This document shows, piece by piece, positions 12,003-42,602 of a DNA stretch of 64,000 bases. Where the stretch lies: the IMG/VR virus record IMGVR_UViG_3300037312_000757; one strand, given 5' to 3'. Position numbers and translations under genes: made by a program. Within the stretch, counting starts at the first letter, position 1; every line of letters starts with the position of its first letter. The DNA comes from a virus. Taxonomy: Duplodnaviria; Heunggongvirae; Uroviricota; Caudoviricetes. The notes under the pieces were generated by a model. That model had not been told where the DNA came from and did not search any database. It worked only from the letters and a program-made list of their open reading frames with translations.

Positions 12003-12069
12003 TTCTAGTTGTTATTAATAGGCGTTGTGACTAAAATTCTAGCACAACGGTGGCAACTAAGTGTGAACG

Positions 12070-13406: not shown

Positions 13407-13452
13407 AGCAGGCTCCAAGGTTAGATTAGGTATGGCTGATGATAGCTTCGCG

Positions 13453-22405: not shown

Positions 22406-22482
22406 CTGGTCTCGGGTGTGGGATTCGAACTCACGTCACCTGGTCCCAAACCAGGCACACTAACCAGGCTGTGCTAACCCGA
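22406..22482 (-). tRNA. tRNA-Pro (anticodon UGG)
   Basis: Hand-folded cloverleaf: acceptor CTCGGGT/ACCCGAG, D-arm GCAC/GTGT, anticodon stem CCTGG/CCAGG with loop TTTGGGA, T-loop TTCGAAT, encoded CCA. Confidence 0.8.
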
Positions 22483-22611
22483 GATATGTAGTTCCGTGTT
22501 CATGGTTGTATCACAATCGTCTACAGCATACATGAACAGAGTGTCGACCCTCTTGGAACTACGGGGGTGGAAGTTCCGCATCCGCGTAGACTTGGAACTT
22601 CCGATCACTGT

Positions 22612-22623
22612 GGGGGGGGGGGG
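22612..22623. repeat. G12/C12 homopolymer tract inside the tRNA cluster spacer
   Basis: 12 consecutive G on the plus strand between tRNA-Pro and tRNA-Ala, within a highly structured ~165-nt spacer. Confidence 0.7.
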
Positions 22624-22651
22624 CCAGCTTTCGCCAGCGCCCTTAAAATCT

Positions 22652-22727
22652 TGGTGGAGGTAGACGGGATCGAACCGACGACCTTTAGCTTGCAAAGCTA
22701 CTGCTCTCCCAGCTGAGCTATACCCCC
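22652..22727 (-). tRNA. tRNA-Ala (anticodon UGC)
   Basis: GGGGGTATAGCTCAGCTGGGAGAGC... with G3:U70 Ala identity pair, anticodon loop TTTGCAA, T-loop TTCGATC, CCA. Confidence 0.8.
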
Positions 22728-22728
22728 A

Positions 22729-22804
22729 TGGTACATCCTGACGGGATCGAACCGCCGACCTTCGCCTTGTAAGGGCGTTGCTCTACCAGCTGAGCTAAGG
22801 ATGC
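22729..22804 (-). tRNA. tRNA-Val (anticodon UAC)
   Basis: GCATCCTTAGCTCAGCTGGTAGAGC..., anticodon loop CTTACAA, T-loop TTCGATC, CCA. Only 1 nt from tRNA-Ala. Confidence 0.75.
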
Positions 22805-22857
22805 ATTTTCAGAGACGCAACAATGACTGCTTTGCTGCTGTTCCGTAAGTGTTTCAC

Positions 22858-22886
22858 ATTCTATTTAGTTCTGTGCCAGTAGTCAA
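22858..22886 (-). promoter_or_regulatory. sigma70-like promoter for the tRNA cluster (TTGACT-17-TAGAAT)
   Basis: On the minus strand, TTGACT (22881-22886), a 17-nt spacer, then TAGAAT (22858-22863), ~50 nt upstream of tRNA-Val. Confidence 0.55.
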
Positions 22887-22965
22887 CAACTATTTTCAAT
22901 CGTTTCAAAAATATTTACCAACTGGCTTGGTTCGCGCTGCTAACACGTCACATAGTACAGCGCAA

Positions 22966-23790
22966 TCAGAACGACAGCAATTTACCCACAGCGCTTTCCA
23001 GCATGCGATGCAGCTCGAAGCCAATACCACGTTCCAGCTTTGCAATCTCTTCGTTCAGCTTCTCGGGCGTGCAATGTTCTTGCGCCTTCATGAAGAAGTG
23101 TTCGACACAGCCGTACACTTCTTCACGCCACCAAATGCTGTGCTTGGCCTTTTCGCCCAAAGTCGAGTGTAGCATATCGATCCGTTGGCCCCAGTCTTCC
23201 ACACGAAGCAGCTTGATTTTACCGGTGATTACGTACTGTGCAAGCAATTCACCCAAGAAGTCCAGATCATTCTCCAGCATGCCCATCCGTGCAGAGCGCA
23301 TCGTGCAAAGCATTATCAACAAAGCGTTGGGATGCTTGCCGAATCCGTTGATGCGACCACGTTCAAGCTTAGGTTCTTCGCCCGTCATGTGCTTGTAGCC
23401 TTCGCCAATCTCAGAGATTAAGTTGTATTCAGACACTTGACCACCAGCTTGGATTGCATGCGCCATACGGTGAACCATTGTCCACGCATTCATCGGCATA
23501 GCATTAGGGCCAGTAACATTAGTCGTGTGGCACAAATTGACACAGTCGGGACGGATGAGCTCATCGGGGCGGATCACATCACCACGCAAGCGGTCACCTT
23601 CCGCATGCACAAGATACGTGCCCAAGTGAATGTTGATGTTGAACTTGAAGGGCGTTACGTCGAACTGCCGATGAATCTTGGCTAACCCGGCTTCTGAGTG
23701 CAACAGCGCAACATCGGCATTGGACCAGCCTGCGCCTTTGCTTACACAGTTGTTCTTGTCACCATGAACGCCGAGATGTACCAAACTCAT
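22966..23790 (-). CDS. hypothetical protein (274 aa)
   Basis: Long ORF with GGAGAA RBS. No confident domain. Possibly a hydrolase. Confidence 0.65.
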   Translation of the reverse strand: MSLVHLGVHGDKNNCVSKGAGWSNADVALLHSEAGLAKIHRQFDVTPFKFNINIHLGTYLVHAEGDRLRGDVIRPDELIRPDCVNLCHTTNVTGPNAMPMNAWTMVHRMAHAIQAGGQVSEYNLISEIGEGYKHMTGEEPKLERGRINGFGKHPNALLIMLCTMRSARMGMLENDLDFLGELLAQYVITGKIKLLRVEDWGQRIDMLHSTLGEKAKHSIWWREEVYGCVEHFFMKAQEHCTPEKLNEEIAKLERGIGFELHRMLESAVGKLLSF

Positions 23791-23856
23791 CTTGTTCTCC
23801 TGTTAATCACCACAAACCAAGTTTAAGTTCATTTGGCGCAGGAATCAACAGATGAA

Positions 23857-24012
23857 TCAGTCGTTGGAATAAAAGAAAATGCGGTCTTTGCCGACAAACA
23901 TGTGGAGATGGATACCATTACGGTACTTGATACGGTCGTGTGCAATCACACCTAGGATACCAACGATGAGAACAGTACCAACAGCAAGACCGCAGCCAAG
24001 AACGAGCTCCAT
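23857..24012 (-). CDS. small membrane protein (51 aa)
   Basis: MELVLGCGLAVGTVLIVGILGVIAH... GGAG 8 nt upstream. The plus-strand ORF 23879..24073 is its antisense shadow. Confidence 0.4.
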   Translation of the reverse strand: MELVLGCGLAVGTVLIVGILGVIAHDRIKYRNGIHLHMFVGKDRIFFYSND

Positions 24013-24074
24013 GACGTTGCTCCAAAGTTATGACATTCAGATGATACTACCAAGTTTGGCAAGTATCAAGTGAA

Positions 24075-24293
24075 TTACTTTGGCTGCACAGTCAGGGAAA
24101 ACTTGATCATGAGGGCTTGTTGACGAGCGTTTTCAAGCTCAAAGATGTCGGACTTGAAGCAGAAGTCTGGTGAATCTTCCTGCTCACGTGTGAGGAAGGC
24201 AATACATTCATCGACGAATTGGTCGATGTCTTCTATGGTCGCATTGGGATCATATCCCATGTCCTTGATGCGATCAACGATTTTGGTCTGCAT
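24075..24293 (-). CDS. hypothetical small protein
   Basis: 72-aa ORF with weak RBS. Confidence 0.4.
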   Translation of the reverse strand: MQTKIVDRIKDMGYDPNATIEDIDQFVDECIAFLTREQEDSPDFCFKSDIFELENARQQALMIKFSLTVQPK

Positions 24294-24771
24294 GGTTGGT
24301 GTAATTCTTCAGCTTGGTTGCCAGTTTAATTCGTTTGACTTTCAAGCCATAAGCCTGTGCGGACGACGAAAGTTCCCCATATTTATAGCCTGCAAAACGT
24401 GTCAGTAGGGTGAGCATAATGTGCATGAAAATGCCACCATGCTCTTCGCTATCCTTCTCATCAATCATGTTGCAGAGAGTATGGGCCAATTCGTGAAGAA
24501 CAATTATATTGTTGCGAGACCACTTTGGGAGGTGTATCTCAGTATGGAAATTGCGAGCGTAATTACTACCACGACCATCAACCACTTTAGGCGCGGTGCC
24601 CTTCATATTCAGGGCTTTCCAGCATTCTTTTACCAATTCACGGCATTGCTTTAGGGTGATGATTGCTTCATCGCGGAAGGTGAAACGGGACGATTCCCAT
24701 GAATAACAGAGTTGCGTTTGGCCCGCAAAGTCACCCGCGCTTGGGGAATTGGCAGCACGTAGGTTGCTCAT
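24274..24771 (-). CDS. putative zinc metallopeptidase (HExxH)
   Basis: IVLHELAHTL motif. Start at MSNLRAAN, with AGGAG 8 nt upstream. Confidence 0.55.
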   Translation of the reverse strand: MSNLRAANSPSAGDFAGQTQLCYSWESSRFTFRDEAIITLKQCRELVKECWKALNMKGTAPKVVDGRGSNYARNFHTEIHLPKWSRNNIIVLHELAHTLCNMIDEKDSEEHGGIFMHIMLTLLTRFAGYKYGELSSSAQAYGLKVKRIKLATKLKNYTNHADQNR

Positions 24772-24850
24772 AATGCGGGCTCCTGTTATAATTGGCATCG
24801 ACCACGCAAATATTTAGTGGTGAAAAACGCCAATTAACAGCGCACACAAG

Positions 24851-25039
24851 ATGAGCGACAATAAAGATAAAAAGGCTTCATTGTGGGAAGCCACGAACAT
24901 GGGCTTCAACGACCGAGACACCGCCAAGTCACCAGAAGACGTTCTGGCAGCCCTCCAGTTGATTCGAGAGGCCCGGAAGCAGCTTGATGCGGCAGAGGCC
25001 CTATTGCTCGGAATTCAAGCCAAACTACAGGTGAAGTGA
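24851..25039 (+). CDS. hypothetical small protein
   Basis: 62-aa plus-strand ORF overlapping the next by ATGA-type junction. Confidence 0.45.
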   Translation: MSDNKDKKASLWEATNMGFNDRDTAKSPEDVLAALQLIREARKQLDAAEALLLGIQAKLQVK

Positions 25040-25260
25040 TGGACTACAGAATTGAGATCAAGGTCTCAGGGCCAGGTATGACGATCAACACTGAAATGGC
25101 ATTGATCGAAAAAGCGCTGCGTGATGCAGGCATTCCTGTGGATGTGGTGAACGAACACCCGGACTCACCGACCAGCAATCAGCTGAGTGAGAGTCACATC
25201 GAGTATTGCAGGAAGCGAGGTGTGAAGCTGGTGGCTAATCACTGCCCTTGGGGTGGTTGA
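25036..25260 (+). CDS. hypothetical small protein
   Basis: 74 aa. RBS AGGTGA. Followed by a GC hairpin plus T-run at 25270-25299. Confidence 0.5.
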   Translation: MMDYRIEIKVSGPGMTINTEMALIEKALRDAGIPVDVVNEHPDSPTSNQLSESHIEYCRKRGVKLVANHCPWGG

Positions 25261-25269
25261 AACACTGAC

Positions 25270-25288
25270 GGCGTCCCCTGGGGACGCC
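25270..25288. terminator. terminator between convergent genes
   Basis: GGCGTCCCCtggGGACGCC, with T-rich sequence downstream on the plus strand. Confidence 0.5.
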
Positions 25289-25309
25289 GTACTTACTTTT
25301 GGAAAGGAA

Positions 25310-25609
25310 TTACTGGTGTCGGACCATCTCGGGAGCCGGCATCAAGCCGTTGGGAGCACCATCGTTTACAACCCCTCCCATGTACTCCGGGTACAAAACC
25401 TGAAACTCGAGCAGCTTGTCCTTCAACTCGTCGTTTGACATGCGGTCGAACCCCGCACTCTTCGGATCACTCTTGATCTGATCACCCAGCAGCTTCAGCG
25501 CAACCTCCCGCGCGAACACCCACTTGAAACCGGCCGGTACAGTCATCGGCACCAGGTCAGGATAAACGGGATCATTCAGGAACTCTGCTACTTGCTTCTC
25601 TGCATTCAT
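25310..25609 (-). CDS. hypothetical protein, paralog family E (GGVVND motif)
   Basis: 99 aa. RBS AGGTGAG. Shares a VYP..VP...F.FAR.VA...L...GGVVND..NG pattern with the next gene. Confidence 0.55.
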   Translation of the reverse strand: MNAEKQVAEFLNDPVYPDLVPMTVPAGFKWVFAREVALKLLGDQIKSDPKSAGFDRMSNDELKDKLLEFQVLYPEYMGGVVNDGAPNGLMPAPEMVRHQ

Positions 25610-25895
25610 AACTCACCTGTGGTGTTTGAAATGCGTTAATGAAACCGTTCGTAACATCGTCGTTGACAACTCCACCGTATAGGTGGTAAGGAACAGCGCC
25701 CTCAGCTAGAAGGCATTCACCCAATTCCGCGTTGTTCATCGTTGAATACGTGAGTCGCAGATCTTCAGGCATGTCATCTTGCAACATTTCTAATACGAAG
25801 ATAGCAACAGTGCGGGCGAAAACAAAACACCCTTGGTTTGCGTCGCGGATAGGGATGGAGGTCGGATACACTAGATCATGTTCTTCCAAACTCAT
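25572..25895 (-). CDS. hypothetical protein, paralog family E
   Basis: Tandem paralog of 25310..25609. Start uncertain (Met1 or Met6). Confidence 0.5.
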   Translation of the reverse strand: MSLEEHDLVYPTSIPIRDANQGCFVFARTVAIFVLEMLQDDMPEDLRLTYSTMNNAELGECLLAEGAVPYHLYGGVVNDDVTNGFINAFQTPQVSYECREASSRVPE

Positions 25896-25955
25896 CACCT
25901 CATACAACAAAGGCTGACCCGCCGTGGGTCAGCCTTGTGTCAGTAGCAGCATAGC

Positions 25956-26798
25956 TTACGCGCTCTGCGTGCCTTCGTCCTTCTGCTTCTTCGTGCTGGC
26001 CTTCTTGACAGCAGCAGTCGTGCTCTTCGCCGCCGCCTTGGCCGCAGGGGTGTTCGCAGCTTCCGCCGCGGTTTCAGCAGCTTGGGCTTCACCGTTTGCT
26101 TCACCAGCTGCCGTGATCGCTTGTTCTTCAGCGCTCAGACCGAAGTGCTTGGCGAGTTCGTCCGCGCTCGACTGTACCGTCGTGTCGCCTGCCGACGTTT
26201 CCGAGGTTTCGGTCACGTTCGTTTGCGGTTCAGCTTGCGTGTCAGTCGTGGGTGCTGCCGGCGCTTCAGGCTGCGTAGCAGCTTCCGTCTTCTTGCCCTT
26301 CGACTTACCGCCCGTCGCTTTCTTTGCGGCCGGCTTGGCTGCCTTTTCCGTCTTTTCCTTTGCAGCTTTCGCCGGTTTCTCGGCCTTTTCAGCCTTGGCG
26401 GGCTTTTCGGCCGGCTCTTCCTTCGCGTCCGCCTTCACCGCAGTTTTCATCAGCGCGGAGTCGGCGACGATCAGCGTGGGCGTTGCGTCAGTTGCATCGT
26501 CCGGCAGTTCGCGCAGCGTGAACCAGCCGTAGCCTTCGTCGTTGAACAGGAACGACGCGCCGAGATCGGGACGGGTGTACTTGAGCTCTTTCAGGTAGCC
26601 AGCGGGAATTTCGACCAATGTCGCGCCGCTTTCAGCTTTTGCAGTGCGTGCCTGCAGGTTCTTTCCCGACACGCGGTAGCTGGGCCGCAACGCCAGGTAT
26701 TCGACACCACCGCGCTTCTTGATGTTCACACGAAGACGCGTGATGCCTTGCAGCAGTTCAACTGCCGCGCCATTGAATTGCAAAACCAACGAGGTCAT
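25956..26798 (-). CDS. Lys/Ala-rich histone-H1-like (AKP-repeat) DNA-binding-type protein
   Basis: ~110-aa N-terminal domain followed by ~170 aa of KAEKPAKAAKEK.../AAKAAAKSTTAAVKK low-complexity tail. GGAGAA RBS. GC-rich. Confidence 0.65.
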   Translation of the reverse strand: MTSLVLQFNGAAVELLQGITRLRVNIKKRGGVEYLALRPSYRVSGKNLQARTAKAESGATLVEIPAGYLKELKYTRPDLGASFLFNDEGYGWFTLRELPDDATDATPTLIVADSALMKTAVKADAKEEPAEKPAKAEKAEKPAKAAKEKTEKAAKPAAKKATGGKSKGKKTEAATQPEAPAAPTTDTQAEPQTNVTETSETSAGDTTVQSSADELAKHFGLSAEEQAITAAGEANGEAQAAETAAEAANTPAAKAAAKSTTAAVKKASTKKQKDEGTQSA

Positions 26799-26957
26799 GT
26801 GTAATTCTCCTTAAATCTTCATCTGGTCCTGGGGCAAAAAGCTTGCACAAAAATATTTGTGTAAATGAACTTTAACATCATCTGCTCACCTACACAAGCG
26901 CTTTATGAACATTCTTTTAGCAAACGAACAACACTTTCATTTAAAACTGGTAAAAAC

Positions 26958-27635
26958 TTATACAACAGAAAAACGTGAAATTACTTCTTTAATCCCCAAA
27001 ACCTCAATACCAGAGCGGTCCTCCGGGAACACAATCATGCCAAGTACGGAGAACGGATCAGAAACATCTACTTCTGGTTTTAAGCCAGGTTCAAAAAGCA
27101 TTTGCATCGCATTTCGATATTTCGCACCACAAAATTGGTAATTCATTACCGAAATACTTGGATCATAACCAGCCCATACCAATTTGGCATACGTCTTCAT
27201 GTCGACTAAAGCAGCGCGCGTGATGGCTTCAAGCGGAACACTGTCCTGATAGCCACACGTTCCGAGCGCTTTTAAGCTTTGCCGCCAGTCATACATGTGA
27301 GCGCGTTCACGATAGTACATCGTTCGCTCTTCCATGGTTCCTGGCACATCATCTTTGCCGCGATTCGTCTGCTCCACAGCATCTTCATCTGCGCAGAGCA
27401 TGAATTCATTCAGCATGTCGGTGTCGATCTCTAGCACGACTAGACGATCATCATGTTCTTCCTCACAAGCTTGCGCCGAGAAATACAGCGCATATGAGTC
27501 AGTCAGGTAGACCGTTTCATGATTGCTAGGGATACTGTGATCCCAGTTGCTCACCTGTGTTTGGTTCCGCGGGGTGAGCCCGTTCTTCAGGATACTGGGA
27601 AGATGACGGCTTGCTGTGCCGTGATAGAGAATCAT
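26958..27635 (-). CDS. KptA/Tpt1-like NAD-binding (ADP-ribosyltransferase-fold) domain protein
   Basis: N-terminus MILYHGTASRHLPSILKNGL closely matches the conserved LYHGT...IL.EGL segment of Tpt1/KptA. Lacks the Tpt1 N-terminal domain. ATGA-coupled to the upstream Zn-ribbon gene. Confidence 0.5.
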   Translation of the reverse strand: MILYHGTASRHLPSILKNGLTPRNQTQVSNWDHSIPSNHETVYLTDSYALYFSAQACEEEHDDRLVVLEIDTDMLNEFMLCADEDAVEQTNRGKDDVPGTMEERTMYYRERAHMYDWRQSLKALGTCGYQDSVPLEAITRAALVDMKTYAKLVWAGYDPSISVMNYQFCGAKYRNAMQMLFEPGLKPEVDVSDPFSVLGMIVFPEDRSGIEVLGIKEVISRFSVV

Positions 27636-27952
27636 GCTTTCGTCGCGAGCAGTTCGAGAGCTTCGGGGTCGAGAACGCAGAGATCGCCGTCCGGGAAATC
27701 GCGGTTTGCGCGGTTCAGCATATGAGCACAGTCACCGCAGTAGAACGCATATGAACCACGGTTCCACCACACAGCGCCAGGTCTCTGGCACGCGGTACGG
27801 TTGCAGCTACCCGCCTTCTTGCCCTTGTCTGCTTTCTTTTCGGGCTCCGTGTGAGCGATCAGCCCACGTGGGCCTGCGTTGGTGAGGAACATACCACGCA
27901 GGCTGGAATTTCGTGCAGACGGGATACCTTGGCGACGCGCCATTGATTTCAT
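27632..27952 (-). CDS. zinc-ribbon protein
   Basis: CNRTAC...CGDCAH four-Cys ribbon. GGAG at the start. Promoter-repeat variant upstream. Confidence 0.5.
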   Translation of the reverse strand: MKSMARRQGIPSARNSSLRGMFLTNAGPRGLIAHTEPEKKADKGKKAGSCNRTACQRPGAVWWNRGSYAFYCGDCAHMLNRANRDFPDGDLCVLDPEALELLATKA

Positions 27953-28013
27953 CTCCTGTTCGTTTACCGTATTCAGATGATATGTTCGTATGAATATGGT
28001 GTAAAGCGAATTT

Positions 28014-28370
28014 TCAGCTGTTTTGAGCCAGAATGATCGCGTACAATTTATGGCTCACCATTCGCAATTTGTCGGCGTCGACCTTCAAGTGTGCAAGTGC
28101 CCGCGCGATTTCATCAACTTCGAGGGCACGACGAGCCATCCGAACGACCGTGTAATCTTGCAGATCATCACGTTCAACTTCATCAAGCAAGTCCTCATAT
28201 TGCTCGTAGGTGAGCTTGAAGCCTTGCTTCTGCTGGCGATACTGGCAGTAGAACGCATGCTTGTTGATGTCGCCATTGATCTGCGGATCGGAAAGCTTGC
28301 AGTAAACGCACCGATAATACGGATTGCCTCCACCAATCGGTTCGGTGGGATAGTTGTGATCGTATGCCAT
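28014..28370 (-). CDS. hypothetical protein (CxxC...C pair)
   Basis: 118 aa. RBS GGAGAAAAC. Confidence 0.55.
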   Translation of the reverse strand: MAYDHNYPTEPIGGGNPYYRCVYCKLSDPQINGDINKHAFYCQYRQQKQGFKLTYEQYEDLLDEVERDDLQDYTVVRMARRALEVDEIARALAHLKVDADKLRMVSHKLYAIILAQNS

Positions 28371-28418
28371 GTTTTCTCCAAATGGAGAGAGCCCCCTTGG
28401 GAGCCCTTCCGCGCCGAC

Positions 28419-28787
28419 TTACTTTGCCTTGTACGTCTTCACCTTTTTGCGGCGAGCAGCGATACGCGGACGCTTGACCTTCACATCGCGAACGTCGAAC
28501 GACAGCTTGATCTTCGCAGCGTCCGTCTCGTCGGACAAGTACACCTTGTCCACGTAGATGATCTTGTTTTCGAATTCCTTCGGGCGACCCTTGACGCGCG
28601 TCGAATCCTTGTGCGTATAGCACACCACCTTGTAGTAGCCCTTCGCGTTCTCGCGGAGCCATGTCAGCACGTCTTCCGGAGCAAGCTGGCTGTTACCAAA
28701 CCAGAAACGCACCGGGAATGCGTAGTAGTGGCTGATGTCGCCAAAGCGTTCACTGTGGCGGCCGAAGTCTTTGATCGTTGTGGACAT
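28419..28787 (-). CDS. hypothetical protein with basic C-terminal tail
   Basis: Trimmed to MSTTIKD after GAGGAGG. KRPRIAARRKKVKTYKAK tail. Confidence 0.55.
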   Translation of the reverse strand: MSTTIKDFGRHSERFGDISHYYAFPVRFWFGNSQLAPEDVLTWLRENAKGYYKVVCYTHKDSTRVKGRPKEFENKIIYVDKVYLSDETDAAKIKLSFDVRDVKVKRPRIAARRKKVKTYKAK

Positions 28788-28862
28788 TCTGTACCTCCTC
28801 ACGTTGTTTACCATAACCAGATGATAAGTTCACATGAATATGGCGTCAAGCGTTTTGTTCAC

Positions 28863-29099
28863 CTAACTTTGCGGCACCCCGTCTGTGTACCCGAAGGGAC
28901 CATATCCACGAATGCTCACCAGGTACGTATCCCAGCCGCAACGATCGTCGAAGCCCTGAGGCAAGAAGCCAACGTCGTCCGGGCCAAAATGCGTCGCCAT
29001 GCGTTCGTTGATCTCTTTCAGCAAGTCTTCCTTCGTCTCAAAGTTGAAGACCGTGGCCAGTGATTCCGCTAGGTTACCGCGATGTTCACGTGCTCTCAT
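28863..29099 (-). CDS. hypothetical small protein
   Basis: 78 aa. AAGGAAGGG upstream. TAAATG junction. Confidence 0.5.
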   Translation of the reverse strand: MRAREHRGNLAESLATVFNFETKEDLLKEINERMATHFGPDDVGFLPQGFDDRCGWDTYLVSIRGYGPFGYTDGVPQS

Positions 29100-29464
29100 T
29101 TACAAAACCCTTCCTTTTGCGCAATGCGGCGCGTCATCGTCAGCACCGTAGTATCGAGAATGTCTTCGTGGCGATGCATACCGCTGCCTGTATAGGCCAC
29201 CACCTCGAAGTACGTTTGGTCACGACCACCAGTGAAATTACCCTGCTTGTAGTGGTAGTTGATGATCAGTTGCCGTTCGCTGTCGAAGATGAACGCAACT
29301 TGTGCAGTTTGATTGCCTGCACGATGCTGGTCCACTCGATGTACCACCTTCGATGCGCCAATTTCGTTGGCCAAGCTTTTGATGCCTTTAACATCGATCA
29401 AAAAGCAGTCATAGCTGGTTTCTTTCACAGCTTTGCGAACTTCACGCTTGTATTCAACTGTCAT
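29096..29464 (-). CDS. hypothetical protein
   Basis: 122 aa. RBS GGAG. Promoter repeat upstream. Confidence 0.55.
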   Translation of the reverse strand: MTVEYKREVRKAVKETSYDCFLIDVKGIKSLANEIGASKVVHRVDQHRAGNQTAQVAFIFDSERQLIINYHYKQGNFTGGRDQTYFEVVAYTGSGMHRHEDILDTTVLTMTRRIAQKEGFCK

Positions 29465-29469
29465 TTTGA

Positions 29470-29520
29470 TCTCCGCTGTTTACCATGTTCAAATGATACG
29501 TTCAAATGAACACGGTAGCA
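29470..29520 (-). promoter_or_regulatory. conserved promoter/operator/leader repeat copy
   Basis: tttaccatgttcaaatgatacgttcaaatgaacacggtagcaagcg. Confidence 0.55.
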
Positions 29521-29527
29521 AGCGAAT

Positions 29528-29983
29528 TCATTCATCTTGTCCACGACTTTTCATCGCACGTTGCACTTCTCGCTTCACTTCGCGATCCTTGATCGCTTCG
29601 CGCTTGTCGTGCTGCTTCTTGCCCTTAGCAAGCCCGATTTCAACTTTGACCCGCCCACGATGATAGTGCAGGTTCAGTGGCACTACGGTGTAGCCAGCGG
29701 TTGCCACTTTGCCCGAGAGCTTGTCGATCTCGCTCTGATTCAGCAGAAGCTTCCTGGTGCGTACCGGATCAGGCTTGATGTGCGTGGAGGCTTCCGGCAA
29801 CGGGCTGATGTGAGAGCCCAACAGGTAGAACGCACCGTCACGGAAGAACACGTAGGCTTCCTGAAGCGAAGTACGCCCAGCGCGGATGGCTTTCACTTCC
29901 CAGCCCTCCAACACGAGACCAGCTTGAAACTTGGTCTCGATGAAGTAGTCGTGGAAAGCTTTTCGATTTTCAACGATCGACAT
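29528..29983 (-). CDS. smpB: SsrA-binding protein SmpB
   Basis: Full-length match to the SmpB pattern ([26 protein letters not shown]...L.EAY......LLG.HISP.......DP.RTRKLLL...EI.KL......GYT.VPL.L....R.KVE..LAKGKK.HDKRE) including the basic C-terminal tail. Confidence 0.85.
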
Positions 29984-29989
29984 TTACAG

Positions 29990-30205
29990 TCAGAGCCCCG
30001 TATCGAATAGAATGTCAGACCACTTGTGGCCGGTTTCATCATCTTCCCGCGCGTTGAGTGGGGAGACGCTTTTGACCTGGTTGCTGAAGCCGTTGTGCTC
30101 GACCCACACTTCAGTGGGATCACCAATGTTGTCGGTTTCCGGCCAGTCCTTTATGAGCTCCTTCAGCTCCTTGACAGTCAGCCCGTTGGGAAATTGAACG
30201 ATCAT
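29990..30205 (-). CDS. hypothetical small protein
   Basis: Track ORF trimmed to MIVQFPNGLTVKEL (AGGA upstream). The longer N-terminal extension is low-complexity overlap. Confidence 0.45.
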   Translation of the reverse strand: MIVQFPNGLTVKELKELIKDWPETDNIGDPTEVWVEHNGFSNQVKSVSPLNAREDDETGHKWSDILFDTGL

Positions 30206-30206
30206 G

Positions 30207-30455
30207 TTAGTCCTTGACGTTGCGGTTGCGGTAGGCATCGCCACGGTAAGCATTACGGCGACGGGCGGCGTAAGCACGTCCACGGTTGTTGACGACGGGC
30301 TCGATCTTACCGGTGACGCTGTTGATGATCGCGACCGGGATGTCACCGAACGTCTTGATGAATGAGAAACGACGGCGGGCCTTAGCGCCCTTGATAGCAC
30401 GAACATGCACCTGCTTCTCGATAATCGGCACTGCAATGTCTTGCCAGATAACCAT
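30207..30455 (-). CDS. small basic (Arg-rich tail) protein
   Basis: Trimmed to MVIWQDIAVP after AAAGGAGGAAAG. Promoter repeat upstream. Confidence 0.5.
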   Translation of the reverse strand: MVIWQDIAVPIIEKQVHVRAIKGAKARRRFSFIKTFGDIPVAIINSVTGKIEPVVNNRGRAYAARRRNAYRGDAYRNRNVKD

Positions 30456-30516
30456 CTTTCCTCCTTTGTTTACCATTGCCCAGATGATACGTTCACCTGA
30501 GCAAGGCTGCAACTGA

Positions 30517-30831
30517 TTACTGAGCGGCTTGCGCTTTTTTAGCTGCGTTGCGCTGACGGGTGTCGAACGCTTTGAAGCGACGCACAAGCTCCTTTTTGAC
30601 AGCTTGCGAGTTTTCCGAGCGATATGCGCCAGAATTGACTGCCATGTCGAGCGCTTGCATTGCACCCTTGTGTGTGCAGCGGAGTTTGGCGTCTTCCTGC
30701 TCTTCGGACGGTGTCTCGAGCAGAGCAGCGAGGTACTCTTCGCCATACTGGCCGACGTTTGCGCATTCCTTGCGGATGAGTTGGGCAAGTTCGTTCAGCG
30801 TCATCTTCTTCAGCTCGTCTTGCGTCAGCAT
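30517..30831 (-). CDS. hypothetical protein
   Basis: Trimmed to MLTQDELKK. The MVNNTEEQQ prefix is the translated leader. Confidence 0.55.
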   Translation of the reverse strand: MLTQDELKKMTLNELAQLIRKECANVGQYGEEYLAALLETPSEEQEDAKLRCTHKGAMQALDMAVNSGAYRSENSQAVKKELVRRFKAFDTRQRNAAKKAQAAQ

Positions 30832-30905
30832 CTGTTGCTCCTCTGTGTTGTTCACCATGTAAAGATGATAGTTTCATATGAACAAACAGTCAACGTTCAA
30901 ATGAA

Positions 30906-30931
30906 TTTAGGGGCGAAATATTTCGCCCCTA
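30906..30931 (-). terminator. intrinsic terminator
   Basis: TTAGGGGCGAAAtatTTCGCCCCTAA. Confidence 0.5.
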
Positions 30932-30954
30932 ATGTTTACTGCTGAAGCAGCAGC

Positions 30955-31350
30955 TTAGAAGCTGAAGTCGTGATACGTTTCGCGCGAGCCAATGCGAACA
31001 CCACCACACGTCGACTTCTTCCAGCGACCAGTTTCCGGGCTCTTGTACACTCGTTCCCACATTCCGTTTGTGGCAGTGCGGAACGTTTCCGTGCGGCCAT
31101 TCGCGTTCGGCGAGTATTCGTAGTCTTGACACTCGCTCATGCCGTTCTTGTCGATGCGCTTCGAGTGATCTTCTTGAACCGTGATGTACATCTTGCCGCG
31201 GATCGTTTCCACCTTCGTGATCGTACCAGCATGGCGATCCGTGTAGGACAGCAGAGTAGCGCCCATGCCAACTTCCGGGGTCGGTTGTCCCTTCACACCA
31301 CGTGCATAAAGGTGATTGACCAGGCTGCCAGTTTGTTGTGCGTAGCTCAT
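30955..31350 (-). CDS. hypothetical protein
   Basis: 131 aa. RBS AAAGGAGAAACG. Confidence 0.55.
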   Translation of the reverse strand: MSYAQQTGSLVNHLYARGVKGQPTPEVGMGATLLSYTDRHAGTITKVETIRGKMYITVQEDHSKRIDKNGMSECQDYEYSPNANGRTETFRTATNGMWERVYKSPETGRWKKSTCGGVRIGSRETYHDFSF

Positions 31351-31502
31351 TGCGTTTCTCCTTTGCTGTTTACCATGTTCCTATGGTATGTTCATTTGAA
31401 CATGATTACAAGCACCAAATGAATTATTTTTCTGCTTGATGAACATTCATCTGGTATGTTAACCTGAAAGTAGCCAGCTTTTCACCATGATGAGCTCAAA
31501 AG

Positions 31503-31529
31503 AAAACGGGAAGCAATGCTTCCCGTTTT
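31503..31529. terminator. bidirectional intrinsic terminator
   Basis: AAAACGGGAAGCaatGCTTCCCGTTTT. Confidence 0.6.
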
Positions 31530-31546
31530 CACAACGTTCGTTTGAT

Positions 31547-32371
31547 TTACTTCTTGGCTACATCAATTACCTTTGCCACCCCGCCAATGTTATCGGCTTG
31601 TGTTTGGGCCGCGTTGGCGTTGCGCCACGCGATCACTTGTTCGGGCGTGAGATGCGCAGCATCAGCAGCGGCTCGAAGTGCTTCTGCGTCAATTGACGCT
31701 TTCTGCCGAGCAAGTTCCTTGCGTTGTGCAATCAGCGCAAGTTCAGCAGCATTGCTCTCTCGCTCTGCGTTGAACGACGCAACCTTGTTCACCTGTTGCT
31801 GAATAGAATCTGGCAACTTAAAGTGTGTCGTCGTAACGTTCACTGACAAAAACGCATCAGGATAACGTTGATCCAGCAATCGTTTGAATTCAGCTGATGC
31901 TTTCTCGTCATACGCTTGTGTATTTTTGGCAATAGCAACCGGATTGTCAGTTTCAGTTACCGTTTGCATCACACCAGGTGCCCACTGTTTGATGGCCTCA
32001 AGCCCGATCGTTGTATATTCTCGATTGCTACCATCTTTGTATGTGTCAAGTTCATGTGTGGTAGAATAGAACTGTGATACATGCTGTGGATTGAGCGTAT
32101 AAGTGACAATGATATCAAGATCATCCACAGGCACGCCATCAGCATCTTTTGGTGTCAGGTTATTTACCACTACCCTTGTGGGTGTGGTGTCGACTTCGGC
32201 GAGGATCGAATCGAAGAACATCCAGTGAAATCCAGGTGTAGCGACCTCAGGGTCGATCTTGCCACCCCAATGCTTGACGATGCCAATATTACCTGATTCA
32301 ATCCGCGAGCATCCACTCATCGCAAGAATGATGGTTGCAAGCGCAGCAAAAAGTGCTAGAGTGCGTTTCAT
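31547..32371 (-). CDS. SPFH/band-7 (prohibitin/HflKC-like) lipoprotein
   Basis: Start at MKRTLALFAALATIILAMSGC (lipobox) after ACGGAGGT. GIVKHWGGKIDPEVATPGFHW... SPFH-type core plus an Ala/Glu coiled-coil tail. Confidence 0.55.
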   Translation of the reverse strand: MKRTLALFAALATIILAMSGCSRIESGNIGIVKHWGGKIDPEVATPGFHWMFFDSILAEVDTTPTRVVVNNLTPKDADGVPVDDLDIIVTYTLNPQHVSQFYSTTHELDTYKDGSNREYTTIGLEAIKQWAPGVMQTVTETDNPVAIAKNTQAYDEKASAEFKRLLDQRYPDAFLSVNVTTTHFKLPDSIQQQVNKVASFNAERESNAAELALIAQRKELARQKASIDAEALRAAADAAHLTPEQVIAWRNANAAQTQADNIGGVAKVIDVAKK

Positions 32372-32420
32372 TATACCTCCGTAGATTGTTTGGTGCGCCA
32401 TTATATATGAATGGCAAATG

Positions 32421-32447
32421 AAAAGCGGGAGTATTGCTCCCGCTTTT
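32421..32447. terminator. bidirectional intrinsic terminator
   Basis: AAAAGCGGGAGtattgCTCCCGCTTTT. Confidence 0.6.
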
Positions 32448-32459
32448 GCCACTTACCGC

Positions 32460-33116
32460 TTACCAGCCGAAACGATCGCGCAGCTCTTTGCGACGTGCGC
32501 GCGTATCAGCACGTTTCGCACCAGCGTCAGCAGCTTCCGCCTTGTGCGCGTTGTAGCACGCGTCCAGCTCGACGTTGAATCCCTGCTTCTGCTTCATCTT
32601 GATCGTCACACCAGCGTGCTCGTAGCGCACCCAGCCCATGCGCGAGCCGACGCGCGTGTACGACGTGGTAGTGCGGAAGCCCTTCAGCTTGCATTGCTTG
32701 TAGTCGACTTCACACACCTTGAAGTCGTATTCATCATCAGCAGTGATGACCGTTACAATGTCGCCAGGACGCACGTCGTTGCCGGCCAGGTTCTCCTGGT
32801 ACTTTGCTTCGCGCTTCTTGTAGTCAGCTTGCAGCTTGTCGATTACCTTCTTACGCGAGGCGGCCGTTGCCTGTTTCGCGATTTTCATGACCTTTGCCAG
32901 CTTGGCGGCAGTGTCGACACCGTATTCGATGCGCATCTTCCACCAGTACGAGGAGCCGGGATTCTTGCCGCCCAAGCTTTCGAAGTTATACGTGACAAAC
33001 GTGCGCGTGCGTTCGATCGACACGAGACGGGAGCGACCATACTTCACATCGTACTTCGTGTTCGCTTCGTATTCGACTTCAGCGCCAACGACGAACAGTT
33101 CCGAATTCTTGGTCAT
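32460..33116 (-). CDS. hypothetical protein
   Basis: Trimmed to MTKNSELF after the leader. Confidence 0.6.
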   Translation of the reverse strand: MTKNSELFVVGAEVEYEANTKYDVKYGRSRLVSIERTRTFVTYNFESLGGKNPGSSYWWKMRIEYGVDTAAKLAKVMKIAKQATAASRKKVIDKLQADYKKREAKYQENLAGNDVRPGDIVTVITADDEYDFKVCEVDYKQCKLKGFRTTTSYTRVGSRMGWVRYEHAGVTIKMKQKQGFNVELDACYNAHKAEAADAGAKRADTRARRKELRDRFGW

Positions 33117-33223
33117 TTGCTGCTCTCCTGTGTTGTTTACCATGTGTCACATTATGTGTTCATTTGGCTACGTTTGCAAGCACTTGTTGAATTAAATGAA
33201 CAATTATTTTTGTGCATATGAAA

Positions 33224-33248
33224 AAAGAGCCCACACAGTGGGCTCTTT
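33224..33248 (-). terminator. intrinsic terminator
   Basis: AAAGAGCCCACacaGTGGGCTCTTT plus T6 on the minus strand. Confidence 0.6.
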
Positions 33249-33249
33249 C

Positions 33250-33414
33250 TCAATCCTTATCTGGATCGAACCGCTCAGTCTTCTTGCGCGGTAGCTGCTT
33301 GAGATCGTACGTCTTAGAGCGGTCATACGACTCGCGCCAGCGTTTGTACACCCGCTTGATCTTAGCACTATTGCAGCCGCAACCACGCAGGCGTTTCAGT
33401 CCTCGACGTTTCAT
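33250..33414 (-). CDS. small highly basic protein (54 aa, GCGC motif)
   Basis: Below the track cutoff. GAGGAGG 6 nt upstream of ATG. Terminator 33224-33248 downstream. The track ORF 33204..33386 is a different frame. Confidence 0.45.
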   Translation of the reverse strand: MKRRGLKRLRGCGCNSAKIKRVYKRWRESYDRSKTYDLKQLPRKKTERFDPDKD

Positions 33415-33479
33415 GGTTCCTCCTCAGGTTAAATTCACCTAGGGGAAACCGTCCTCTGCTTGTTTCATGTTGCCTCCTT

Positions 33480-33824
33480 TTACGGCTTCAACAGATCGGC
33501 GAGATCGTCGAAGTAGTTGGCGACTTCCGAGTAACCTGAACTATGACCATGTTCCCATGCGATATCGAACGCGCGGTTCGCCTTCGGGTGGGCAGTCACA
33601 CCATGTTCATCGAACAAGTCAGCCTTGAATTCCCGTTCCAGCGCGTTCTGCAGATCGCGGTACTTGCGCGTTTCTGCGTAATAGGCATCCTTGTCGAAGT
33701 CTTCTTCGATGATGCAGCCAGCGTCTCGATATTCCTTCAGTGCATTGGCATCGATCTTGTTCTTTGCTACGCCATTCACGATCGTCTTGCCCTTGCTGTA
33801 GACGAACAGGCTTCGCAGCGTCAC
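33480..33824 (-). CDS. hypothetical protein (GTG start coupled to a 21-codon leader ORF)
   Basis: 114 aa. The only in-frame start is a GTG overlapping the TGA of an upstream 21-codon ORF that carries the promoter-repeat RBS. Confidence 0.5.
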   Translation of the reverse strand: MTLRSLFVYSKGKTIVNGVAKNKIDANALKEYRDAGCIIEEDFDKDAYYAETRKYRDLQNALEREFKADLFDEHGVTAHPKANRAFDIAWEHGHSSGYSEVANYFDDLADLLKP

Positions 33825-33894
33825 CGGTTCGGGTAAGCCATCGGAACAGCATTGTAGTAATCGAAATTCTTGAGACCCATCTTCATTTCTCCTT

Positions 33895-33945
33895 GAGTTT
33901 GTTTACCATGTTCAAATGGTAAATTCACCTGAAGAATGAATCAAG
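33895..33945 (-). promoter_or_regulatory. conserved early-promoter/operator/leader repeat (consensus copy)
   Basis: Plus-strand tgTTTACCATgttcaaATGGTAAAttcacctgaa...tcaagtg. On the coding strand this reads cTTGAyT-N17-TACCAT then TGAACATGGTAAACA, then GGAGA-N5-8-ATG. One of at least 40 copies (listed in the findings). Confidence 0.6.
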
Positions 33946-34204
33946 TGTTTTTCACTACGTTGTCAGAAAATGTCAGCTTGAACTGCATGGCGATCAACTC
34001 ATCGCGGAATGCATAGACGTTGATCAGATGCACAAAGTCATCACTTTGGCATTGTGCAGCCAGCCATGCCTGAGCCTCGTCCTTAACACGCGGCGCAATG
34101 AGTTGATACTGGAATGGATAATGGCGCCGCAGAAGCGTGGCGCTGTTTTCGTTGGGTTTGCGGGGTTGAGCTTTAACAAAGTCAACCCATTCTAATGGAG
34201 TCAT
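33941..34204 (-). CDS. paralog family A small protein (C-terminal F..LTF motif)
   Basis: 87 aa ending ...DELIAMQFKLTFSDNVVKNT. ATGA-coupled. Confidence 0.5.
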   Translation of the reverse strand: MTPLEWVDFVKAQPRKPNENSATLLRRHYPFQYQLIAPRVKDEAQAWLAAQCQSDDFVHLINVYAFRDELIAMQFKLTFSDNVVKNT

Positions 34205-34518
34205 GCGATACCGTAAGTTAATTTAAACATTGCTGCGTCACCAAGTTCCTCGAAACACCAAATAGCACTGATGCCTTTGGGCGTCGATACGATGGCACCG
34301 AATTCACCTGTCGTGTTGTTATCGAGAAATTCGTCCAGGTCAGCGGTCTTGCGACCAGCTTCACGGAAAGCTCGGCGGTGATCATCGGTCAGCACCACAT
34401 AGCCTTCAGGGACAAAACCGAGATCATCAACACCACGGATGATAGCTGGCCAGAAAACGTCACGAATGTTCGCGTCTGCGAGGACCTGTTCTAGCCTCTT
34501 CATCTGCGCTTGGTTCAT
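34201..34518 (-). CDS. paralog family A small protein
   Basis: 105 aa ending ...ELGDAAMFKLTYGIA. RBS GGAGAGAG. Promoter repeat upstream. Confidence 0.55.
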   Translation of the reverse strand: MNQAQMKRLEQVLADANIRDVFWPAIIRGVDDLGFVPEGYVVLTDDHRRAFREAGRKTADLDEFLDNNTTGEFGAIVSTPKGISAIWCFEELGDAAMFKLTYGIA

Positions 34519-34571
34519 ATCTCTCTCCGTGGTTTACCGTAGCCAGATGATACTTTCACTTGAACCAAGAA

Positions 34572-34880
34572 TCAACACCACGTCAGCTTGAATATAGCAG
34601 CTTCGGACAGGTCTTCAAACACCATCACCATAGCGATATCGGTGAATGCCGGTGAGGTTAGTCGGTGAAATTCACCTTTAACGTTATCAGCCATCCAATC
34701 AAAGAAATAGTCAACAGTTAGGTTCGGGAATGTTTCGTTGCTGATGACTACAAATCCCTGTGGTTTGAATGGCAACGCTTTCAAAATCTTCTCGAAGGTT
34801 TCAAGCTCCCAATCACGTTGGCTGAACATGGTGGGCTTGCAACCGTAAAACTCGTTGAGGGTCTCAGTCAGAGTTTTCAT
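34572..34880 (-). CDS. paralog family A small protein
   Basis: 102 aa ending ...DLSEAAIFKLTWC. TGAATGA junction. Confidence 0.55.
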   Translation of the reverse strand: MKTLTETLNEFYGCKPTMFSQRDWELETFEKILKALPFKPQGFVVISNETFPNLTVDYFFDWMADNVKGEFHRLTSPAFTDIAMVMVFEDLSEAAIFKLTWC

Positions 34881-35140
34881 TCAAATGCAAGCTTGCAAGC
34901 AATAGCATCGGCCATCGACTCAAAGTAGATGCCGTTGCAGAACTGGGGATTGAAATACCGACTCGCCAAGCTGTCGAACCATTCCTTGTTATCCCGCACT
35001 AACTTGACTGCGGCCGTATTGTAGCAGCGCAATACACAAGCAGGAGTCCAGCAAATCGTGGTAAGTTTGAGTCTGCGTACTTCTTTCACATTAGGACGTT
35101 CATCAATGAAATCCTCTACTGTCATTATTTTAAGCGCCAT
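34877..35140 (-). CDS. paralog family A small protein
   Basis: 87 aa ending ...MADAIACKLAFE. Confidence 0.5.
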   Translation of the reverse strand: MALKIMTVEDFIDERPNVKEVRRLKLTTICWTPACVLRCYNTAAVKLVRDNKEWFDSLASRYFNPQFCNGIYFESMADAIACKLAFE

Positions 35141-35417
35141 CGACTAGCCATGTAAGTTTGAACATCAGTGCAACATTTTCATCAGTGAAGAACCAATACT
35201 TGTCGCTTTTTCGTTGAGCGTTTCGCCCTGTTCTTTGCACCAGTTGCGCATATTCTTTAATGCCCCACGGGTCCAAATTCCTGACACGTAGAACAATCGT
35301 GACATTGTGTTCCAGCAAGCGTCTGGCGAGTTCTGGACGATGTGCTGGGTTTTGATAGCGCACGTAATCAAGAACAGGAATTACAGCGCTGCCATCGTCG
35401 TTTAATGTGATTGCCAT
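35130..35417 (-). CDS. paralog family A small protein
   Basis: 95 aa ending ...ENVALMFKLTWLVDGA. Begins 10 nt after an intrinsic terminator. Confidence 0.5.
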   Translation of the reverse strand: MAITLNDDGSAVIPVLDYVRYQNPAHRPELARRLLEHNVTIVLRVRNLDPWGIKEYAQLVQRTGRNAQRKSDKYWFFTDENVALMFKLTWLVDGA

Positions 35418-35427
35418 ATGGTGAAAA

Positions 35428-35445
35428 GGGGAACTTTTGTTCCCC
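35428..35445 (-). terminator. intrinsic terminator
   Basis: GGGGAACaaaaGTTCCCC plus TTTT on the minus strand. Immediately precedes the ATG of the gene at 35417. Confidence 0.55.
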
Positions 35446-35460
35446 TAGTGTAGCACAGCA

Positions 35461-35480
35461 CTGGCAACCTTAGTTGCCAG
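35461..35480. promoter_or_regulatory. CTGGCAAC-ctta-GTTGCCAG perfect palindrome
   Basis: Same 8-mer half-sites as at 13453. Near-copy at 802-828 and single half-sites at 9880-9950, 15170-15200, 15920-15940, 36550-36560, 58845-58915 and 59560-59600. Confidence 0.45.
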
Positions 35481-35487
35481 TTGTGGC

Positions 35488-35847
35488 TTAGTGACGCGTG
35501 TTCAGCTTACCCTTCGACATGTCGGAGTAGAAGTGCTTCGTCACGTCGGCCACGAGATTCGGGCACAGCGTCATTTGCATCGCCGGCGAAGCAACCGGGG
35601 TGTACACATCACCACCATCCGTGCGGCCACCGATCTTTTCTGCCCACTTTTCCATCACGGCGCCCAGCTCGCTCAGGAAGCGCGTCTTGAACTTCAGCTT
35701 GCCGTTACGCCGACCCCAGAAGTTGACCAGCTTGCCGTCGATCTTCGCGATGCCCCAGATTTTGTCATTAGAAGCAGCACCGCCTGCGTTGCCACGTGCG
35801 CCTTCGTTGTAGAAGTGACCAAACTTGAGGATTTCGACGTTTGCCAT
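35488..35847 (-). CDS. paralog family B protein (GRRxGKLxFKT core)
   Basis: Start MANVEIL. Shares M.VEI...GH...G.RG..GG.SKD.V.G.A......GRRGG.L.FKT with 39657 and 45470 genes. Conserved 5'-UTR hairpin upstream. Confidence 0.6.
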   Translation of the reverse strand: MANVEILKFGHFYNEGARGNAGGAASNDKIWGIAKIDGKLVNFWGRRNGKLKFKTRFLSELGAVMEKWAEKIGGRTDGGDVYTPVASPAMQMTLCPNLVADVTKHFYSDMSKGKLNTRH

Positions 35848-35880
35848 GTTCATTTCTCCTTAAAGTTGTTGCAGCGTTTT

Positions 35881-42007: not shown

Positions 42008-42253
42008 TTACTGACCCTTCTTACCCAAGCGAATGGTCATCGTCTCCCGTAATTTTTCAACTTCGAAGGTTTCGCCCTCGAAATAGCTGATGAAATCCTC
42101 CGGAAGCTGTTGCAAGACGAGGTCTGTTTCGTAGACCGAAGTGTACGGCATGAAACCACCACGACCACCCTCTTCGGTGGTGATGACCTGGATGACTGCG
42201 TCTTCAGGAAATTGATCGAGCCACTTTTGCAATTCGAGTCGCGTCACACTCAT
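42008..42253 (-). CDS. hypothetical small protein
   Basis: 81 aa. RBS CAGGAGAAC. Promoter repeat upstream. Confidence 0.5.
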   Translation of the reverse strand: MSVTRLELQKWLDQFPEDAVIQVITTEEGGRGGFMPYTSVYETDLVLQQLPEDFISYFEGETFEVEKLRETMTIRLGKKGQ

Positions 42254-42259
42254 CTCGTT

Positions 42260-42305
42260 CTCCTGTCGTTACCATGTTCATATGGTAAGTTCAAATGAAC
42301 AATCA
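42260..42305 (-). promoter_or_regulatory. conserved promoter/operator/leader repeat copy
   Basis: ttaccatgttcatatggtaagttcaaatgaacaatcagtcaagcgc. Confidence 0.55.
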
Positions 42306-42602
42306 GTCAAGCGCAAGATAGAATTGCATAGCATCAGAATGATTCTGGAAATACGCAAAACCAAGTCCGTCCAATGCATACTGCTGAATGCCTTGGTTCT
42401 TCAGAATTTTTTCGTAAACACTGGGCGCTTCAATAGCAGACGCGACAACGAATTCAATCGTTATCTTGTTTTGGCGCTCCAATCGTCCTATGTCAATGCG
42501 GCGTTTTTTGCGCGTCTCGCGTGATGCACGCTGCTTCAGAAAATTGCCCTTGAAGTCGTACTCGACGCCGACAAAATCTTCAACGGTAAAGAGCTCAGCC
42601 AT
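42303..42602 (-). CDS. paralog family A-like small protein
   Basis: 99 aa ending ...HSDAMQFYLALD. Confidence 0.5.
   Translation of the reverse strand: MAELFTVEDFVGVEYDFKGNFLKQRASRETRKKRRIDIGRLERQNKITIEFVVASAIEAPSVYEKILKNQGIQQYALDGLGFAYFQNHSDAMQFYLALD

Follow-up and report, generated by a model that had tools for sequence, protein, structure and literature searches.

The smpB gene and its product

Bacteria rescue ribosomes mainly by trans-translation, in which SmpB is the protein partner of transfer-messenger RNA (tmRNA). A gene for this protein, smpB, is carried by a 64,000-nucleotide stretch of DNA (hereafter, the window) from IMGVR_UViG_3300037312_000757, a viral record assigned to Caudoviricetes. 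The gene is intact, it is under strong purifying selection, and it lies in DNA that is strongly supported as that of a huge phage; its product probably acts as a functional canonical SmpB together with the tmRNA of the host. The gene occupies the following position.

29528..29983, minus strand: smpB coding sequence, 151 amino acids (aa), ATG start, stop codon counted in the coordinates; full-length SmpB, its central loop and C-terminal GKKQHDKR tail being intact.

A reading of the letters without database searches (the sequence-only reading) had called this open reading frame (ORF) an unmistakable SmpB and had proposed a search with the profile PF01668. That search, when run, matched the ORF with E=4.1e-57 and 192.6 bits (cutoff 27) over profile positions 1-142 of 143. 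Both NCBIfam equivalogs also matched, NF003843 with 2.6e-61 and 205.8 bits (cutoff 130) and TIGR00086 with 1.2e-53 and 181 bits (cutoff 119.1), and E. coli SmpB chains from cryo-electron microscopy entries of the ribosome with tmRNA (7ACJ and others) aligned gap-free over residues 3-146 (E=1e-48). The identification therefore holds at full length. The PHROGs counterpart is phrog_6791 (1.1e-58), which is labelled “unknown function”.

E. coli SmpB, which is also present in entry 6Q98, is 52% identical to the phage protein over the full length and shares with it the beta-barrel core, the central loop, and the GKKQHDKR tail. The 10-residue N-terminal extension of enterobacterial SmpB is absent from the phage protein, as it is from betaproteobacterial SmpBs. 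At two positions, E31 and W147 of E. coli SmpB, the phage protein has Q and V, respectively; several Betaproteobacteria likewise lack W at the latter and have G or A. The conserved C-terminal tail, described earlier as KGKKxHDKRE, is present, and its core residues G121, K122, K123, D126, K127, and R128 are invariant across an alignment of 18 sequences, in which the wider 12-residue tail segment is conserved and the central loop shows no deletion. The central loop is important for SmpB and contacts the tRNA-like domain (TLD) of tmRNA (PMC4131195). As judged from the alignments, all features known to be necessary for canonical SmpB function are kept in the phage protein.

Search for a tmRNA gene

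The search for a partner tmRNA gene covered the window and 6.8 kb past its left end, the latter taken from the contig encoding the left-end TerD gene, out of a contig of 523,837 bp. ARAGORN found no tmRNA in the window, just three tRNA genes in one cluster, and Rfam returned the same three tRNAs at gathering thresholds and no tmRNA family even at E<=5.

22407..22804, minus strand: cluster of tRNA-Val(UAC), tRNA-Ala(UGC), and tRNA-Pro(UGG), found by ARAGORN and Rfam, 6.7 kb downstream of smpB.

The tRNA-Ala(UGC) of this cluster, at 22652-22727 on the minus strand, is the canonical tRNA-Ala noticed in the sequence-only reading. In its tmRNA-only mode, ARAGORN reported nothing in the window at 90% of its thresholds and 25 scattered pseudo-hits at 80%. 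No tmRNA was present in the left flank, nor within 10 kb on either side of smpB in the related loci L020-L023, L026-L028, and L006. The tRNA cluster keeps its relative position in the related phages (L020-L023 and L026). Metagenome loci were also picked by a promoter motif of the clade, described below; they number 110 and comprise 773 kb, only some of them being from relatives, with about 120 kb from one related phage (sample Ga0209888). ARAGORN found no tmRNA in the 80 of these loci on which it was run. The earlier observation that the window holds no tmRNA is thus borne out. The description of the gene as an orphan stands for the window, the left flank, and the vicinity of smpB in relatives; it is unproven beyond the parts searched, and orphan status is not established genome-wide, since the window is 64 kb of 523,837 bp.

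Origin, inheritance, and selection

Among GTDB species genomes, the best 80 matches to the phage SmpB are all from Betaproteobacteria, with 65-72% identity. They span Neisseriales, the Gallionellaceae/Thiobacillaceae/Sulfuricella group, Oxalobacteraceae, Burkholderiaceae, and Rhodocyclaceae, and no family stands out. By sequence similarity, the donor class is Betaproteobacteria. In the 34 betaproteobacterial genomes checked, ssrA was never found within 4 kb of smpB; since the two genes are unlinked in this class, smpB was probably captured alone, without ssrA. The other 140 candidate ORFs of the window gave no match to the regions 4 kb on either side of smpB in 80 betaproteobacterial genomes. 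A prophage-edge artefact was rejected, as there is no adjacent ssrA and there are no bacterial flanks, SmpB being the only one of 141 window ORFs that matches these 80 smpB loci. A recent transfer from the present host was also rejected, because identity to any genome is at most 72% and the base composition has adjusted to each phage. The capture is not recent.

Closer relatives were found in metagenomes, where the proteins P0002 to P0006 are 76-87% identical to the phage SmpB. The collection lists P0003 (81%, locus L020) in 160 of its blocks, with contigs reaching 307 kb. Contigs with relatives measure 307 kb and 296 kb, the shorter one being in IMG/VR, and locus L006 represents a relative on an IMG/VR viral contig. 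L020 and L026 (the P0005 locus) are syntenic with the window at about 23-36 kb, sharing gene order, the tRNA-Val/Ala(/Pro) cluster, and the promoter motif, while L027 encodes an SmpB of the clade in a similar setting of ORFans and otherwise has little in common with the window. In L020, no gene of the neighbourhood is better conserved than SmpB (81% versus 30-80% for its neighbours), and in L026 it ranks second (77%).

Between SmpB pairs of the clade, the nonsynonymous distance (dN) is 0.15-0.18 and the synonymous distance (dS) is saturated; dN/dS is about 0.09 where computable. The phage smpB is under strong purifying selection along its whole length. A pseudogene was rejected in view of the intact ORF and a dN/dS below 0.1. 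The phage SmpBs cluster in a neighbour-joining tree, in which the clade was recovered within two extra tips in 20 of 30 bootstrap replicates. In GC content, smpB follows the phage genome in each case (54 vs 50%, 49 vs 46%, 50 vs 47%, and 41 vs 41%). The gene appears to have been gained once, to be under constraint where it is kept, and to be absent from at least one lineage.

Transcription unit and promoter motif

The smpB gene is the third and last gene of a putative transcription unit on the minus strand, which consists of the following features.

30484..30512, minus strand: putative sigma-70-like promoter of the three-gene smpB unit, with -35 TTGCAG at 30512-30507, a 17-nt spacer, and -10 TATCAT at 30489-30484; reference copy of repeat family D6 (30466-30512).
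30207..30455, minus strand: first of the three ORFs, 82 aa with a C-terminus rich in Arg, no match to any family; Shine-Dalgarno AGGAGG at 30465-30460.
29990..30205, minus strand: second of the three ORFs, 71 aa, likewise with no match to any family; stop codon 6 nt before the smpB ATG.
29493..29521, minus strand: next putative promoter copy (TTGCTA, 17 nt, TATCAT), a few bases past the smpB stop; would drive the gene at 29096-29464.

Since just 6 nt separate smpB from the second ORF and a strong Shine-Dalgarno sequence is missing, the two may be co-transcribed and translationally coupled, and the promoter copy right after the smpB stop would mark the 3′ end of the unit. The first ORF was also called in L001, an independent assembly of the region; its homologue in L026 is 67% identical and does not lie beside smpB there.

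The putative promoters belong to an intergenic motif of about 65 nt, which is found upstream of at least 25 minus-strand genes in the window. Examples are given below.

29463-29532, 30466-30512, 31356-31423, 33886-33955, 42249-42321, and 48260-48332: copies of the motif, all upstream of minus-strand genes.

Read on the coding strand, the motif consists of cGCTTGAC, N6, TGTTCAtaTGAAC, N, TAyCAT, N, and TGAACATGGTAAAC, followed by GGAGA and ATG. It resembles a sigma-70-type promoter with -35 TTGAC, a 17-nt spacer, and -10 TAYCAT, after which a Shine-Dalgarno sequence is located, and we infer from its sequence that it would function as a promoter. Two palindromes are present in the motif, GTTCAnnTGAAC in the spacer and TACCAT-N6-ATGGTA over the -10/+1 region. 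The core pattern has 15 matches on the minus strand of the window and none on the plus strand. The motif is common to the relatives L020-L023 and L026 and is not found in L006 or L027. The repeated motif also accounts for the spurious “MVNN...” N-termini of ORFs called over-long. Upstream of the smpB unit, a perfect 11-bp hairpin (TTAGGGGCGAAATATTTCGCCCCTAA) at 30907-30932 is terminator-like on both strands. An Rfam match to CRISPR-DR4 at 30934-30961, adjoining the hairpin, is below threshold (E=0.13) and was taken as chance.

Genomic context

The identical SmpB protein is recorded on the 523,837-bp JGI contig and on the Logan contig L001. The latter, an independent assembly of 13.3 kb, is 99.97% identical to window positions 22535-35869 and spans both sides of smpB, and both junctions of the gene are thereby confirmed. 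The gene is internal to the window, with about 29 kb of DNA to its left and 34 kb to its right, and it is flanked on the same strand by ORFans that are conserved in related phages. From position 1 to about 58.8 kb, the plausible genes are short and nearly all on the minus strand. A Pfam or PHROG match was obtained for only about 30 of the 113 window ORFs scanned, leaving about 75% without one, and the matched genes represent typical accessory functions of jumbo phages, among them a dCMP deaminase, a CoaE-like kinase, a radical SAM protein, a GIY-YIG homing endonuclease, Lar, and the tellurite-resistance, polyamine, and RNA ligase genes described below. A PLD gene lies on the right side. An HD phosphohydrolase is encoded at 12735-13418; among phage proteins, its best homologues belong to Rak2-like jumbo phages (340-470 kb), and the top phage match, at 42%, is from Ralstonia phage RsoM2USA, the host of which is a betaproteobacterium. 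The hosts of the present phages are probably Betaproteobacteria.

Genes for capsid, portal, terminase, or another virion hallmark are present neither in the window nor in the fetched related loci, where the large ORFs match a helicase, a methyltransferase, and otherwise only PHROG families with no assigned function. The identity of the surrounding DNA as a huge phage is consequently strongly supported by context rather than proven. The earlier description of smpB as phage-encoded agrees with this context, which is phage-like and not that of a bacterial chromosome or a prophage edge. Neither a megablast of 6 kb against GenBank phages, which gave no match, nor tblastn with the conserved 225-aa and 174-aa ORFans, which gave nothing useful, pointed to a known phage relative, and an IMG/VR search with the 174-aa ORFan returned no relatives. 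The predicted structure of a conserved 122-aa neighbour, obtained from database homologues, gave weak matches only, to folds like the RNA recognition motif.

Several of the window's genes deserve further mention. A cluster of the tellurite-resistance type (TerD, TerC/DUF475, and vWA-TerF) lies at 136-2619 and goes on in L024 at 4311-6211, with TelA just past the left end of the window. The polyamine pathway is represented by an enzyme of the arginase/agmatinase family at 5416-6342 on the minus strand (2.6e-55) and by an S-adenosylmethionine decarboxylase (4.4e-17), which, judged by sequence, is probably the gene at 48328-48708. An RNA ligase matches phrog_14301 (1.9e-82). At 9930-12738 on the minus strand, four genes in a row, each coding for 213-253 aa, resemble one another in their N-terminal segments and appear to be tandem paralogues; none of them matches a PHROG family, and the HD phosphohydrolase follows them.

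Proposed function and alternatives

The interpretation favoured here, to which a probability of about 0.6 is assigned, is that the phage protein would be a functional canonical SmpB that works with host tmRNA and sustains ribosome rescue during infection. This is favoured by the conserved features, the purifying selection, and the compatibility of SmpB across species. SmpB of Helicobacter pylori fully replaces that of E. coli, including in the plating of lambda-immP22, which falls 10^5-fold without smpB (PMC2862035). By analogy, compatibility of the phage SmpB with a heterologous tmRNA is plausible. An ancestor of this clade of huge phages, which are represented by contigs of 300-520 kb, would have taken smpB alone from a betaproteobacterium, after which the gene would have been passed on vertically under strong purifying selection and built into phage transcription units. 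During infection, host RNA polymerase would probably transcribe smpB from the sigma-70-like phage promoter. The phage SmpB may then bind the TLD of host tmRNA and bring it to ribosomes that have stalled with the A site empty. Trans-translation would thus be maintained amid host shut-off, or in the presence of non-stop mRNAs arising from RNA damage, including that by RNA-cleaving defences, and the benefit for the phage may lie in this maintenance.

Some points weigh against this interpretation. SmpB and tmRNA act 1:1, so that surplus SmpB alone need not raise rescue capacity. A phage tmRNA may lie in the remaining 460 kb or so of the contig, and with no hallmark virion gene in the window, the phage identity depends on context and relatives. 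Furthermore, the syntenic relative L042 has a 212-aa ORF at the position of smpB and no SmpB remnant at the locus, which means that the gene is accessory and dispensable for the clade. (L042 is contig Ga0209888_1000148, 9569-12400, and is syntenic with the window at 24.3-33.8 kb; its 212-aa ORF has no function by annotation.) Finally, the position of E. coli E31, which we take from mutagenesis to be on the tmRNA-binding surface, although a literature search did not confirm this, is occupied by Q in 7 of 7 clade members, whereas of 113 close homologues from bacteria, 110 have E. The equivalent residue in the phage protein is Q20, encoded at 29924-29926. This E31Q change might, as far as can be predicted from sequence comparison, alter tmRNA binding. 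S, V, or T occupies the position in those SmpBs of other phyla and of the huge phages of Al-Shayeb et al. that were available for comparison, which indicates that a carboxylate is not essential there.

The first alternative is that SmpB is one half of a complete trans-translation module of the phage, the main partner being a tmRNA of its own, one-piece or permuted, encoded elsewhere in the 524-kb genome. Huge phages with both tmRNAs and SmpB have been reported (PMC7162821), and in L018, a locus on a 369-kb IMG/VR contig, a permuted tmRNA lies about 100 nt downstream of SmpB in a tRNA array. The clade-specific E31Q change could reflect co-adaptation to another RNA partner, and about 88% of the genome is outside the part searched. 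On the other hand, the searches described above were negative in the window, in its left flank, near smpB in the relatives, and in the scanned loci selected by promoter motif. The huge phages LR756501 and Lak-B5 also have no tmRNA within 20 kb of smpB, and the two genes are unlinked in the donor class. A phage tmRNA as the main partner is therefore considered unlikely.

A second alternative is that the SmpB of the clade has been retuned. In one sub-branch of the clade, the tail GKKQHDKR has changed to GKKLHDKR (among L027 927-1376, L026 10001-10447, P0004-P0006, and P0078), and in P0006, encoded at L027, it reads GKKLFDKR, with His replaced by Phe. From these tail changes together with E31Q, it could follow that the protein was adapted and not merely borrowed, either for an RNA partner that is not the host's (a phage tmRNA or a TLD-like RNA elsewhere in the genome) or so as to modulate host trans-translation selectively, for instance, by rescue without tagging or by blocking the rescue of host messages. 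Such retuning is regarded as quite doubtful.

Less probable still is a decoy or inhibitor, which would sequester host tmRNA or sit on stalled ribosomes without productive tagging and thereby block a host response that depends on trans-translation. That every clade member has Q at E31, a residue with 97% conservation in the donor class, is compatible with such a role, and the TLD-only RNA of mycobacteriophage DS6A, which is proposed to titrate SmpB (PMC4131195), offers a parallel. Against it, the protein has lost neither the central loop nor any part of the tail motif needed in the A site, its dN/dS below 0.1 from end to end agrees with conservation of the canonical activity, and S, V, or T stands at the E31 position in the compared SmpBs mentioned above; in known cases, moreover, phages need trans-translation and are not harmed by it (PMC2862035). 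The suggestion in the sequence-only reading that the phage protein acts as a decoy or sabotages host trans-translation thus finds no support in view of the canonical features and the strong purifying selection.

A tmRNA-independent role, such as regulation of RNase R stability or regulation through nucleic-acid binding, is rated as very improbable. SmpB-tmRNA modulates RNase R turnover (PMC3968760), a transcription-factor-like role of SmpB has been claimed in Aeromonas, and purifying selection on smpB is not relaxed in Carsonella ruddii PC, which has lost ssrA (PMC4131195). However, the ribosome-specific C-terminal tail, which would be needless for such roles, is the most invariant part of the phage protein. 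Least credible of all is that smpB is not phage-encoded but belongs to a bacterium or a plasmid, or stems from a prophage edge or a chimeric assembly: among 67 “phage” records with SmpB, there are many that place the gene at the record end or annotate it as the host's, similar translation genes on large plasmids were noted by Al-Shayeb et al. (PMC7162821), and virion genes are missing from the window, but the present gene is internal and flanked by ORFans with no bacterial neighbours carried along, two independent assemblies agree on it, it lies behind the element's own repeated promoter motif, its synteny extends across relatives diverged past dS saturation, and those relatives include an IMG/VR viral contig (L006), with homologues in Rak2-like jumbo phages.

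Comparison with known systems and biological meaning

The occurrence of tmRNAs and SmpB in huge phages was documented by Al-Shayeb et al. in 2020 (PMC7162821), and an SsrA-binding protein is annotated in at least eight of their deposited genomes. By tblastn, SmpB was found in Lak megaphages and the 735-kb LR756501 phage, as well as in several IMG/VR contigs of 300-440 kb. The earlier remark that phage smpB is rarely reported is fair, in that two broad reviews of jumbo phages mention neither SmpB nor tmRNA, and it needs correction with regard to these documented huge phages. Like the present protein, the other huge-phage SmpBs are of full length and are encoded in phage genomes of more than 200 kb near tRNA genes. 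They are 39-65% identical to it, and their donors are Bacteroidota- or Firmicutes-like, whereas the present one is of the betaproteobacterial type. No SmpB more than 70% identical to the protein of the present clade was found in IMG/VR and GenBank phage records.

The position of smpB inside or beside tRNA arrays is evident in LR756501 (L219, LR756501.1 179506-219931), with 27 tRNAs within 20 kb, and in the 544-kb Lak-B5 (L220, 92449-132880), with 18. In L018 (3300045971_000577), as here, a huge-phage SmpB is encoded in a region of translation genes; L018 differs in having the permuted tmRNA directly downstream, where none was found here, and a shortened central loop, which is full in the present SmpB. 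Since smpB has no nearby tmRNA in LR756501 and Lak-B5 and has one in L018, both arrangements exist in nature.

Half of a two-part system in the phage, with the host presumably supplying the rest, is also seen in the mycobacteriophages Bxz1, Cali, Catera, and others, in Bacillus phage G, and in the TLD-only RNA of DS6A (PMC4131195). The tmRNA phages (Bxz1, Cali, Catera, and G) carry the RNA half, whereas the present phage carries the protein half. An SsrA-binding protein is likewise found in the records of Escherichia phage 500465-1, Klebsiella ST437-OXA245phi4.1, and Staphylococcus StauST398-5; there, it is the host's own smpB at the record end by the ssrA attachment site, whereas the present gene is internal, syntenic across divergent phages, and at most 72% identical to SmpBs from bacterial genomes. 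SmpB in huge phages is already known, and the mechanism proposed here is conventional. What is new is a separate clade of phage SmpBs of the betaproteobacterial type, with vertical inheritance, selection, promoter integration, and a natural relative lacking smpB.

Some phages rely heavily on trans-translation, as the plating defect of lambda-immP22 illustrates. The possession of an own SmpB, kept under strong purifying selection amid a fast-evolving neighbourhood, implies that ribosome rescue limits the replication of very large phages, for which host shut-off or RNA-targeting defences are possible reasons. The close syntenic relatives with and without smpB constitute a natural comparison within the clade.
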